A stretch of DNA of 64,000 nt, taken from the IMG/VR virus record IMGVR_UViG_3300032327_000953, positions 160,001 through 224,000 of that record. One strand, 5' to 3'. Below the pieces are notes generated by a model. The model made no database searches, was not told where the DNA came from, and saw only the letters and a list, made by a program, of their open reading frames with translations. The position numbers were made by a program, and so were the translations under genes. Below are positions 1 to 13,326 of this stretch, in pieces; position 1 is the first letter of the stretch; each line of letters starts with the position of its first letter. The DNA comes from a virus. Lineage: Duplodnaviria > Caudoviricetes.

Positions 1-842
1 AGGATGGATGGTATGTTAGCAGGAAGATCGACGGTGCTAGATGCGTTGCTATTGTTGACAGTAATAGCAATGCTACCTTTTATTCCCGCACGGGAAAAAA
101 CTTTGATACTCTTGATATTGTTAGCGGTGGCATTAAAGCTTTGGGACTTACTAATGTAGTTCTTGATGGAGAGCTTTGTCTTGTTGATGAAGATGGTAAT
201 GAGGATTTTCAAGGAGTAATGAAAGAACTTCGTAAGAAAGATCATACTATTCCTAATCCTTCATATAAAATCTTTGATATGATTACTCATGATGAGTTTT
301 ATAGTCAGAAGGGAGAAAAGAATAGACCATTCGGTATTAGACTCAAGAATCTTACAGAGATTATGAAGAAGAACGAATGTCCATGCTTGACACTTTTGGA
401 ACAGTCTTTGATTAAGGACGAAAACCATTTTCAAGAATTTGTTAAAGAATCTACTCAAAATGGCTGGGAGGGATTGATGCTTCGTGCCGACACTCCATAT
501 AAAGGAAAACGATCCAAAGACCTACTAAAGTATAAATCATTTTTTGATGACGAATATGAAGTTCTCGACACTGAAATGGGGCCATTCCGCTATGTTAAGA
601 ATGGTGCAGAATGTGAGGAGACTATGTTGAGTTGTGTTATGATTCAACATAAGGGTCATACTGTCAGGGTGGGTTCTGGTTTTAGTATTGATCAAAGACA
701 GGAGTTTTATAAGAACCCTAAGAAAATTCTTGGTAAGATCATTTTGGTACAATATTTCGAGGAGACAGAGAATGAAAAAGGTGGTATCTCTTTGAGGTTT
801 CCAACATTCAAATATCTATATGGAGATTCTAGAGATACATAA
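1..842 (+). CDS. lig: ATP-dependent DNA ligase (5' partial; frame open from nt 3)
   Basis: Frame upstream of the listed ORF reads SRKIDGARC (KxDGxR motif I); also LDGEL, YKIFD, EGLMLR, LLKYK, VGSG and LRFP ligase motifs. Confidence 0.95.
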   Translation, partial: DGWYVSRKIDGARCVAIVDSNSNATFYSRTGKNFDTLDIVSGGIKALGLTNVVLDGELCLVDEDGNEDFQGVMKELRKKDHTIPNPSYKIFDMITHDEFYSQKGEKNRPFGIRLKNLTEIMKKNECPCLTLLEQSLIKDENHFQEFVKESTQNGWEGLMLRADTPYKGKRSKDLLKYKSFFDDEYEVLDTEMGPFRYVKNGAECEETMLSCVMIQHKGHTVRVGSGFSIDQRQEFYKNPKKILGKIILVQYFEETENEKGGISLRFPTFKYLYGDSRDT

Positions 843-906
843 TCTTCTTCAAAAAACTGGGAATATTTTGGGACATTTGGTGTAACTATTAGTAGGAGAA
901 AACCAA

Positions 907-1527
907 ATGAAAAAGAATAAAATCTGCTCTTCTTGTAAAATAGAACATAACGAATGGAAAAAAGGAACATGGTGCAAAAATTGTAATAAAAAATGTCAGC
1001 AAGAATGGTATAAAAAGAATAAAGTCGATGTACTAGATAGAGTTACTAATAATTACATTCAAAATAAAGACTCTAAGCTAGAATATGCCAAAAAATATAG
1101 AGAAGAAAATAAAGAGAAAGTACAAGAATACTTTGATAAGAATAAAAACAAAATATATAAGCAAAGAGCAAAGAGAGAAAAAGCAAGAAGAAAAGAGGAT
1201 GTCTCATTTAGAATAACACAAAACTTAAGATTTAGATTAAGAAACGCTATCAAAAAAAATCAAAAAATAACAACCACCATAGAATACATAGGATGTACAA
1301 TAGAAGAACTAAAGATTCATCTAGAATTAAGATTCATAAAAGGTATGACTTGGGAAAATTATGGGAAATGGCATATAGATCACATATTACCGTGTTCGTC
1401 ATTTGATATGTCCAAAGAATCAGAACAAAGAAAATGTTTTCACTATACAAATTTACAACCATTATGGGCGATAGATAATATGAAGAAAAGCAATAAGATT
1501 CTTCATGGAGAAGAAAGAGACATTTAA
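907..1527 (+). CDS. HNH-family homing endonuclease
   Basis: N-terminal CxxC..CxxC; C-terminal HIDHILP..CFHYTNLQPLW..DN; own AGGAG RBS. Confidence 0.8.
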   Translation: MKKNKICSSCKIEHNEWKKGTWCKNCNKKCQQEWYKKNKVDVLDRVTNNYIQNKDSKLEYAKKYREENKEKVQEYFDKNKNKIYKQRAKREKARRKEDVSFRITQNLRFRLRNAIKKNQKITTTIEYIGCTIEELKIHLELRFIKGMTWENYGKWHIDHILPCSSFDMSKESEQRKCFHYTNLQPLWAIDNMKKSNKILHGEERDI

Positions 1528-1567
1528 CTATGGTGTATGGTATAGTCCCGCCTTAAAGGAGCCTACC

Positions 1568-2011
1568 ATGCACAAAATAGTTATTAGGTCAATTTTTTAT
1601 CACTGGCTATTTTTATTTGTCGGTGTTGCTATAGGATTTATCTGCAACTCAGAATATGTTGGAGAAAAAGCTGTTATTATAGAAAGATCAATCAAAAATA
1701 TCTTTTTCCCTTTGGAATATAATGAGGATATAGAAAACTATATTAAGTGGATGGGTAGAAATAGAATACATTCTGAGTTAGGATATCCTCATGATTTTCA
1801 AATTCTTGAAGATGTTGTTAAGGGAGACGAATATTATTGGGCTATAGCTAAATATACCGATGTAAAAACGGGCAAAGAAATTAAAACTATAGTTAGTACA
1901 AGAGTAAGATGGAAACCTTGGGAATATGGTTATCATACTAAACAATTTGGAAAAATTGTTAAAGAAAAAGAAGAAGCAAATTTGCACAGCAAGGTCGATA
2001 AAGAAAACTAA
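1568..2011 (+). CDS. hypothetical membrane-anchored protein
   Basis: AAGGAG RBS before ATG 1568; N-terminal hydrophobic helix (YHWLFLFVGVAIGFIC). Confidence 0.6.
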   Translation: MHKIVIRSIFYHWLFLFVGVAIGFICNSEYVGEKAVIIERSIKNIFFPLEYNEDIENYIKWMGRNRIHSELGYPHDFQILEDVVKGDEYYWAIAKYTDVKTGKEIKTIVSTRVRWKPWEYGYHTKQFGKIVKEKEEANLHSKVDKEN

Positions 2012-12331: not shown

Positions 12332-12352
12332 TCAGGAATTGTTCAAGACCCC

Positions 12353-12380
12353 TTGACAACCTTGCCGATTAGTGTAAAAT
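12353..12380 (+). promoter_or_regulatory. sigma70-type promoter of rIIB
   Basis: TTGACA-16 nt-TAAAAT. Confidence 0.75.
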
Positions 12381-12426
12381 GACAGTATCACAGGTATCGT
12401 AACTAAAAGTATTAGGAGTTTGGATT

Positions 12427-13326
12427 ATGGCTGTTCCGTTTATGTTTGTGGATGGTAATTTGACACTGGTTCTTAATAACCAGAGTTATCAGGTATTGCC
12501 AGATCATATCAACTATAAGTTGATTCTGGAAAGACTTCCTACTGCTACGGCAGAGGAACTATTGGAAGTTGTTGATGTTCAAAAGGCTGTTGCTACTTTC
12601 AGCGATGGTCTTGTGGAGATCAAGAACGGTCAGGTTCTCTACGAGGGCGAGGAAGTTCATGGTAGTATTAGTAAGCGTATTCTGGAGTTTATGAGCAAGG
12701 GATTGCCGTTTCAGCCCCTCGTTAATTTCCTGAATAATCTCATGGAAAATCCAAGTATGCAGAGTCAGAAGGAACTGTATGATTTCTTGGAACATGAACA
12801 TCTGCCTATCACAGAGGATGGTTTCTTCCTCGCTTATAAGGCTGTTCGTTCAGACTTTAAGGATAAGTATAGAGGAGTTTTTGACAATAGAGTTGGTCAG
12901 GTCTGCGAGATGCAACGAGCAAAGGTTGACGATGATCGTGGTCGTGGTTGCTCTAATGGACTTCATGCTGGTGCATTGAACTATGTTGCCAACTATGGTA
13001 GTCTTGAGGCTGGAGATAAGATTGTTATTGTCAAGATTAATCCCAAGGATGTTGTTAGCGTTCCTAGTGATTGCAACTATGAAAAGCTTCGCACTTGCCG
13101 CTACGAAGTAGTTGGTGAGTATGAGGGCGAATTGCTTAAGCCTCTTTATAAGGCTGATTTTAGTCAGGATGATTACGAGGATGATGAGGATGATTATCTG
13201 AATGACTACGATGAAAGCTATTGGGATCAGTTTGATGAGGAAGATGAGGATGAAGATGAGGACGATGATCTCGTTGGCGATGAAGATGATTCGGATTTCG
13301 ATAATGGACACTACGGAAATCATTGA
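12427..13326 (+). CDS. rIIB: rIIB-like protein with acidic tail
   Basis: LPITEDGFFLAYKAV, CSNGLHAG, VKINPKDVVSVPSD..KLRTCRYEV. Confidence 0.88.
   Translation: MAVPFMFVDGNLTLVLNNQSYQVLPDHINYKLILERLPTATAEELLEVVDVQKAVATFSDGLVEIKNGQVLYEGEEVHGSISKRILEFMSKGLPFQPLVNFLNNLMENPSMQSQKELYDFLEHEHLPITEDGFFLAYKAVRSDFKDKYRGVFDNRVGQVCEMQRAKVDDDRGRGCSNGLHAGALNYVANYGSLEAGDKIVIVKINPKDVVSVPSDCNYEKLRTCRYEVVGEYEGELLKPLYKADFSQDDYEDDEDDYLNDYDESYWDQFDEEDEDEDEDDDLVGDEDDSDFDNGHYGNH

Follow-up and report, generated by a model that had tools for sequence, protein, structure and literature searches.

First cistrons behind sigma-70-type promoters of an uncultured tailed phage are depleted of TTA, ATA and AGA codons, with no detectable link to a group I intron in its tRNA(UAA) gene

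Bacteriophage T4 carries tRNAs with U at position 34 (U34), including decoders of UUA, AUA and AGA. Its codon usage is said to vary with the time of expression and to be complemented by the T4 tRNAs, in work by Cowe and Sharp from 1991 and by Kunisawa from 1992; both papers are listed among the references of PMC3152331. More broadly, half of the phages analysed in one survey use codons differently in their early and late genes (PMC5683454), and phage tRNAs appear to serve late genes (PMC12482277). A difference between early and late codon usage, with phage tRNAs for the later genes, is an old idea, and mostly one of weak statistical contrasts. Here we describe a sharper case in a tailed phage (Caudoviricetes; IMG/VR record IMGVR_UViG_3300032327_000953), centred on a 64,000-nucleotide stretch (hereafter the window) that corresponds to bases 160001-224000 of a 238,135-bp single contig of 35% GC. 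In Streptomyces, the tRNA-Leu(UAA) encoded by bldA controls the small number of genes with TTA codons, and a sequence-only reading of the window had proposed a switch of this kind: early genes that avoid TTA entirely, next to a tRNA-Leu(UAA) gated by the splicing of its intron.

The genome is divided into a minus-strand structural block at about 3-107 kb, which holds an open reading frame (ORF) of 5292 amino acids, and a plus-strand early region at about 113-176 kb. Its closest cultured relatives are distant (the best tblastn matches of its rIIA gene in a phage collection are 26-38% identical), and IMG/VR contains related loci, at least 80 in number, whose rIIA genes show 59-96% identity. Promoters were sought with regular expressions for TTGACA-N16-18-TAnnnT, a position-weight matrix having been dropped after it missed variants with a 16-nt spacer. 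The scan returned 52 sites genome-wide, 40 of them on the plus strand at 113-173 kb. Most are extended by a TTTCAAG-like element further upstream, have a spacer with a CGATAA box and carry TGTA in front of the -10. Plus-strand genes were then ranked by cistron order behind TTGACA-type promoters, yielding 36 first cistrons, and promoter class combined with cistron order was used as a proxy for expression timing. ORFs were picked with a two-class coding model; a filter trained on typical genes hid most of the small early genes.

Codon choice follows the structure of the early cassettes. TTA is the commonest Leu codon of the genome (36-37% of Leu codons), yet it accounts for 20 of 366 (5.5%) in first cistrons, against 22% in second cistrons, 24-33% in third and later cistrons and 42% in the rest of the genome. 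The corresponding values are 21/296 (7.1%), 30%, 26-34% and 37% for ATA, and 63/238 (26%), 43%, 46-57% and 70% for AGA. The difference between first and third-and-later cistrons gives p = 8e-24 for TTA and 3e-18 for ATA (Fisher). Six genes had been singled out beforehand as TTA-free, namely those for a DNA ligase, a glycosylase, a phosphoesterase, a small protein encoded directly 5' of the tRNA gene, rIIA and a putative rIIB, the last a name taken over from the sequence-only reading. Pooled, they contain no TTA among 166 Leu codons, compared with a fraction of 0.37 genome-wide (P ~1e-34, with independent ORF calls). Five of the six are among the 36 first cistrons, but they do not drive the first-cistron result, as 20 of 213 is still the TTA count once they are removed. 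A robustness set of ORFs chosen without any codon model, placed behind strict promoters and limited to genes of at least 100 amino acids, has TTA at 3.1% in first cistrons versus 33% in fourth and later ones. Eleven of the 182 genes with at least 8 Leu codons are free of TTA; all 11 belong to early operons, seven as first cistrons. The absence of TTA was thus claimed correctly, and the pattern is stronger and wider than had been thought. The TTGACA promoters lie where they had been located and the interleaved genes are as rich in TTA as described (Table 1). The proximity to the tRNA gene did not hold: the genes without TTA, only about 40 in the genome, are spread over the whole early region at 113-175 kb.

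Could base composition produce this pattern? First cistrons do have raised GC content at third codon positions (GC3), 0.37 overall, 0.46 at 113-131 kb and at most 0.65, in a DUF932 gene. Logistic models of GC3 and of A at third positions (A3) were fitted on the other genes and used to obtain expected counts for first cistrons. These are 101-125 for TTA (20 observed), 82 for ATA (21 observed) and about 113 for AGA (63 observed), so that composition does not account for the depletion. It is also confined to the reading frame. In-frame TTA occurs in first cistrons at 0.13 of the rest-of-genome rate and out-of-frame TTA at 0.82 and 0.98, while ATA occurs at 0.15 in frame and at 0.81 and 0.51 out of frame. 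This indicates selection on decoding rather than on a DNA or RNA word, and avoidance of a motif such as a nuclease site was rejected because out-of-frame TTA is not depleted.

The depletion is not specific to TTA, as had been supposed. Relative to the rest of the genome, codon levels in first cistrons are 0.13 for TTA, 0.19 for ATA and 0.38 for AGA, and 0.41-0.74 for the other A-ending codons, with CGA as the sole exception that is not depleted. A caveat attached to the original proposal, that ATA is also scarce in rIIA and rIIB, was well placed (Table 1). General avoidance of rare codons, named there as the alternative, applies to the extent that every A-ending codon except CGA is affected, with TTA, ATA and AGA the most extreme.

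The same codon choices are retained in relatives. Among 71 rIIA orthologues TTA amounts to 78 of 4593 and ATA to 146 of 4632, with 0-6 TTA codons in each, so TTA is entirely absent in this genome but not throughout its relatives. Seventy-two orthologues of putative rIIB have TTA 32/1963 and ATA 2/692, and neither codon occurs in 46 orthologues of the small gene 5' of the tRNA (TTA 0/190, ATA 0/133). Orthologues of the promoter-distal genes at 8154-8678 and 8679-9011 use about 45% TTA. When 55 distinct rIIA orthologues (identity as low as 59%) are compared at 49 conserved Leu columns, each column shows a mean of 4.3 synonymous codon types and TTA makes up 47 of 2639 (1.8%), against 70 of 163 in the promoter-distal neighbour at 8154-8678. 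Synonymous sites in rIIA have therefore turned over many times while TTA stayed rare, which points to purifying selection and not to recent import. The relatives' own loci repeat the cistron-order gradient, with TTA at 5.2% versus 52% in those below 65% rIIA identity. TTA codons align mainly opposite Leu in orthologues, and so TTA is read as Leu.

These comparisons bear on the idea that the TTA-free genes are recent imports, or early cassettes swapped in from donors of higher GC that have kept the donor's codon usage. The raised GC3 of first cistrons would fit such an origin, but the depletion goes far beyond what GC3 and A3 predict and is specific to frame. It also persists in rIIA and putative rIIB from 96% to 59% identity, over which synonymous change approaches saturation, and depends on position behind a promoter in every relative examined. 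On the grounds of composition, synonymous turnover in rIIA and the gradient in relatives, recent foreign origin was rejected as the main cause and is very improbable.

T4 offers the closest parallel. Like the phage studied here it is an AT-rich lytic phage whose early genes and capsid gene under-use codons that are rare, in the present case presumably so, in the host. Counts computed here are ATA 2/63, AGA 3/41 and TTA 14/48 for T4 rIIA and ATA 0/38, AGA 1/18 and TTA 5/29 for gp23, and ATA reaches 9/25 in the homing endonuclease gene segD. T4 thus avoids codons that are rare in E. coli in a comparable way, but far more weakly. In the present genome, the avoidance is resolved to cistron order and extends to TTA, with the contrast of 5.5% to 42% given above.

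Codon-level translational selection, in which early, strongly expressed genes keep to host-readable codons, probably explains these data better than a TTA-specific switch. The genes translated first and most would be kept free of the codons that the host presumably reads worst, TTA and ATA, then AGA and A-ending codons generally. Such genes would be the first cistrons behind some 40 near-consensus sigma-70-type early promoters at 113-175 kb, while the remainder of the 35% GC genome would drift towards A-ending codons. Phage U34 tRNAs would serve this AT-rich remainder, as in T4. The genome encodes 11 tRNAs, including Leu-UAA, Ile-UAU, Arg-UCU, Lys-UUU, Gly-UCC, Gln-UUG, Glu-UUC and Thr-UGU, whose codons account for 37-77% of the respective families away from the early region. 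We infer that expression from TTGACA promoters is immediate-early, that TTA, ATA and AGA are read poorly by the host and that genes other than first cistrons depend on the phage tRNAs. A division into host-readable codons for genes that would be translated immediately and phage tRNAs for the rest is well supported by the sequence comparisons. The principle is already known, and this phage is an unusually sharp instance of it.

Several observations weigh against selection of this kind. That the avoided codons are rare in the host is deduced from the codon pattern itself, and the immediate-early class rests solely on promoter class and position; nor can sequence separate timing from expression level. 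A number of first cistrons at 131-156 kb are less clean (TTA 10/66). The phosphoesterase, a second cistron, avoids TTA yet not ATA or AGA, something that the general model fails to predict, and its orthologues behave likewise (TTA 3/291, ATA 161/401 or 40%, AGA 46%). It is the sole named gene whose avoidance appears TTA-specific. None of these orthologues is below 79% identity and most of their Leu codons are CTN; an inherited codon state among close orthologues may be the cause.

A more elaborate possibility is that the phage tRNAs time translation and do not simply support it. An intron-independent switch from immediate-early to delayed-early expression would then be run by the supply of phage Leu-UAA, Ile-UAU and Arg-UCU tRNAs. 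First cistrons, lacking the corresponding codons, would be translated at once with host tRNAs, whereas downstream cistrons and later genes would stall until phage tRNAs accumulate in the first minutes of infection; stalled ribosomes could permit Rho-dependent polarity, and the delay would then act on RNA too. Codon use does step up from first to second cistron within single operons, and the three most avoided codons are exactly those of these three tRNAs. Avoidance is also set per gene and not by distance, since rIIA is TTA-free for 2.7 kb and TTA already occurs in second cistrons that lie only some hundreds of nucleotides behind a promoter. The location of the tRNA genes is less favourable to a clock. 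A cluster at genome 127350-128063 is preceded by promoters at genome 126922 and 127051, tRNA-Arg, tRNA-Lys and tRNA-Leu each follow a first cistron, and about 470 nt separate the tRNA-Leu(UAA) gene from an early promoter upstream of it. Because they sit inside early-promoter cassettes, the tRNA genes are probably transcribed from the start, and at distances of about 300 nt or less from TTGACA promoters any lag would be short. CCA, TCA and GTA, for which there is no phage tRNA, show a depletion as strong as that of several codons with a cognate phage tRNA, and the difference in depletion between A-ending codons with and without a phage tRNA is not significant. The second-cistron class is mixed as well, with some clean genes and others that are HNH genes with a promoter-like motif of their own (see below). 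Finally, a probable major capsid gene, which as such would be late and very highly expressed, avoids the same codons, to a lesser degree than first cistrons, and its low TTA and ATA (Table 1) fit optimisation better than gating. A clock set by tRNA supply is accordingly judged unlikely, and selection for host-readable codons is preferred.

The identity of the capsid gene relies on a phmmer match to a major capsid protein of known structure. PHROGs did not recognise the protein, and a single-sequence AlphaFold model was unusable (pLDDT 34). A TTGACA-type site occurs about 840 nt 5' of the head gene that precedes the capsid gene, inside another ORF.

Free-standing HNH or endonuclease VII-like genes account for most of the TTA-rich genes interleaved with early cassettes (window 907-1527 and, on the minus strand, 6469-6924; genome 158614, 122723 and 124384). 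Instead of a TTGACA promoter, these and several structural genes have a (T)GGTGTA motif, mostly 25-50 nt 5' of the start and at 28 nt in the first of them. Twelve GGTGTA-led genes pooled use TTA at 42%, ATA at 39% and AGA at 81%, and the motif is a candidate for a second promoter class, middle or late.

What, then, is the role of the intron in the tRNA(UAA) gene? With default settings ARAGORN finds no tRNA in the window, and this one appears only when introns are allowed, with a span of 6197-6472 and an intron between nucleotides 34 and 35. Rfam Intron_gpI (RF00028) matches 6220-6414 with 55.4 bits (gathering score 50); the intron of the related locus L008 scores 62.9 bits, and a variant in L007 falls below the threshold, yet aligns to the same intron family. 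Sequence and Rfam alignment show a P1 helix (ACUU with GAGU) in which a U-G pair marks the 5' splice site. The 3' end of the intron reads ...GGUAAG, with a terminal G, and a short pairing joins UUU to the A residues that open the 3' exon. Joining the exons (...CUU + AAAA...) restores a 7-nt anticodon loop, CUUAAAA. The intron-bearing tRNA-Leu(UAA) gene is therefore present as reported, and the element is predicted to self-splice.

Group I introns occur in bacterial tRNA anticodon loops, in cyanobacterial and plastid tRNA-Leu(UAA) and in proteobacterial tRNA-Ile and tRNA-Arg, and all phage introns known in 2014 were in protein-coding genes (reviewed in PMC3984707). The phage element resembles the bacterial ones in gene type, in its insertion between U34 and A35, in a length of about 200 nt without an ORF, in the U-G splice-site pair and in the terminal G. 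It is presumably similar to introns of subgroup IC3. It differs in lying in a phage genome, in being polymorphic among close relatives and in occupying both class I and class II tRNA bodies. Lak megaphages have tRNA genes with conserved introns, and some variants without them, but those introns were left unclassified and termed "enigmatic" (bioRxiv 10.1101/356790), whereas the intron here is a recognisable group I ribozyme. A literature search brought up no account of a phage tRNA gene with a group I intron, the Lak introns being the nearest case.

The tRNA(UAA) gene lies about 3 kb 5' of rIIA in 47 related loci, of which 24 have the intron and 23 do not. Thirteen distinct introns were aligned and are 85-99% identical to the window copy. 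An identical mature tRNA is found with the intron (L025 group) and without it (L005), and a single intron family resides in two unrelated tRNA bodies, one of 74 nt and class I, the other a canonical class II tRNA-Leu of 83-85 nt, which have little in common beyond the anticodon stem-loop. TTA usage is the same either way, at 1.1% of Leu codons for rIIA in intron-bearing loci and 2.2% in intronless ones, 1.8% and 1.9% for putative rIIB, and 0% in both for the small gene 5' of the tRNA. The intron is thus not a conserved gate. It has no detectable link to the codon pattern and is an optional passenger, not a timer; its distribution suggests that it is probably a sporadic self-splicing element that spreads horizontally.

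TTA-specific timing gated by splicing of the tRNA-Leu(UAA), on the model of bldA, is strongly disfavoured and the least probable of the explanations weighed here. In its favour, the intron and the tRNA are both real, and the phosphoesterase avoids TTA but not ATA or AGA. Against this stand the irregular occurrence of the intron, TTA avoidance that is alike with or without it, and the avoidance of ATA and AGA, which means that neither a single codon nor a single tRNA defines the effect. In tRNA genes, small introns of this kind splice themselves out rapidly, and would therefore make a poor clock. All that is shared with bldA is the presence of a tRNA-Leu(UAA) and a TTA codon spread unevenly over the genes. 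In this genome the bldA situation is inverted, as TTA is common genome-wide and only a minority of genes lack it. What survives of the proposed codon-gated timing is that codon use tracks promoter class, acts at the level of codons, is conserved and is accompanied by the cognate tRNA.

Bacterial tRNA-Leu normally has a long variable arm. The mature tRNA(UAA) of the window instead has 74 nt, a class I body with a 5-nt variable loop and A73, and lacks the long variable arm of canonical class II tRNA-Leu. Among 11 distinct class I alleles, all 220 of 220 pair cells are paired and 17 of the 20 pairs include changes of both partners; A73 never varies, and 10 of the 11 alleles retain a G1-U72 wobble. 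With the Rfam tRNA model, the allele that lacks the intron (L005:138-210) reaches 59 bits. Some relatives carry a class II tRNA-Leu(UAA) of 83-85 nt at the same locus, and this replacement, together with TTA standing opposite Leu in orthologues, makes the class I tRNA(UAA) a putative leucine acceptor. Six intron-containing "tRNA-Phe(gaa)" calls by ARAGORN in relatives were rejected as mis-spliced tRNA(UAA) genes with the same intron family. A "tRNA-Stop(tta)" call with a 904-nt intron (genome 157574-158560) is a probable false positive, as its cloverleaf is weak and its span takes in ORFs as well as an early promoter.

About 110 nt directly 5' of the tRNA (window 6087-6196) are kept in relatives and include a long inverted repeat, CTTCCAACTACAT ... 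ATGTAGCTTGGAAG, which stops some 8 nt short of the tRNA 5' end. Divergent relatives have other sequences in front of the tRNA that again form an inverted repeat; the repeat is possibly a leader or processing hairpin. Only in closer relatives does it contain a promoter-like TAGACA-17-TATGAT. The last part of the intron (window 6388-6433, 46 nt) is 97.8% identical to crAss-like phage cr111_1 from human faeces (MT774387.1, 66786-66831), where the match, which suggests an intron family common to very different phages, directly follows a GIY-YIG intron endonuclease gene and precedes the gene for the replicative helicase. A mobile intron with its own homing endonuclease would be expected to contain an endonuclease ORF or be tied to one, but the window intron has no ORF inside it and no endonuclease tied to it. 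The neighbouring HNH gene, which has a GGTGTA motif upstream, adjoins the tRNA only in the near-identical L079 among 41 related loci checked, and a link between the two was rejected because the gene does not track intron presence.

Table 1. Features of the window and of the surrounding genome, with codon counts per family (positions are those of the window unless marked as genome).
Feature	Position	Strand	Basis	TTA	ATA	AGA
Early promoter of ligase	genome 159489-159517, just outside window	+	promoter scan			
ATP-dependent DNA ligase, 3' part; first cistron (counts for whole gene)	3-842 (full gene genome 159544-160842)	+	Pfam DNA_ligase_A_M 1.6e-20	0/37	1/31	
Free-standing endonuclease VII/HNH-like gene	907-1527	+	PHROG 1035 6e-13	6/11	11/17	13/13
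Sigma-70-type early promoter TTGACA-17-TAGAAT	2023-2051	+	promoter scan			
Ogg-type DNA glycosylase, first cistron	2089-2787	+	Pfam Ogg-HhH	0/16	2/15	1/10
Interleaved gene	3916-4779			13/28		
Early promoter TTGACA-17-TACAAT	4776-4804	+	promoter scan			
Metallophosphoesterase, second cistron behind promoter 4776-4804	5128-5745	+	Pfam Metallophos	0/13	6/17	8/14
Early promoter TTGACA-17-TACAAT	5696-5724	+	promoter scan			
Small gene, weak sigma-70 region 4-like helix-turn-helix, first cistron, directly 5' of tRNA	5805-6089	+		0/4		
tRNA(UAA) 5' exon, ends at U34	6197-6230	+	ARAGORN with introns allowed			
Group I intron, 202 nt, no ORF	6231-6432	+	Rfam RF00028			
tRNA(UAA) 3' exon	6433-6472	+	ARAGORN with introns allowed			
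Free-standing HNH endonuclease	6469-6924	-	PHROG 10822 1.7e-46	7/15		
Early promoter TTGACA-17-TATACT	9587-9615	+	promoter scan			
rIIA homologue, first cistron	9656-12331	+	tblastn matches to annotated rIIA genes	0/67	2/66	8/30
Early promoter TTGACA-16-TAAAAT	12353-12380	+	promoter scan			
Putative rIIB, first cistron	12427-13326	+	codon counts	0/29	0/9	
382-amino-acid gene, second cistron after putative rIIB	13500-14648	+	codon counts	2/21	1/24	
GGTGTA-led genes, window	907-1527, 1568-2011, 3215-3427, 6469-6924 (-)					
GGTGTA-led genes, genome	genome 30698-31876, 73077-74339, 76027-76530, 79488-80003	-				
Probable major capsid gene, outside window	genome 95953-96963 (L086:15953-16963)	-	phmmer E 1.2e-7 to PDB 6wkk_A	2/32	0/15	8/24

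For the small gene 5' of the tRNA, an alternative longer ORF from 5769 would add one TTA, and a Pfam search with the putative rIIB matched no family. Elsewhere in the early region, the DUF932 gene mentioned above (genome 129512-130366; L088:9512-10366) is an early first cistron with GC3 0.65 that contains no TTA (0/22), ATA (0/13) or AGA (0/18), the most host-like codon usage of the genome. In a scan of genome contigs with this GC-rich gene the best match was 58% identical, in a Polyangiaceae metagenome-assembled genome. The main tRNA cluster also holds a tRNA-Ser with anticodon ACU, that is, with A at position 34 (genome 127583-127672).

Two by-products of the analysis concern the tRNA gene itself: a group I intron in phage tRNA genes, with a presence/absence polymorphism across two tRNA bodies, and a conserved tRNA(UAA) without the long variable arm usual for bacterial tRNA-Leu. 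The wider interest lies in the codon contrast, which in this phage is almost categorical, resolved to single cistrons, controlled for composition and frame, and conserved across a large uncultured family. The set of avoided codons could predict which codons the host decodes weakly, and the family is a clean natural system in which to ask whether phage tRNAs merely boost translation or time it.

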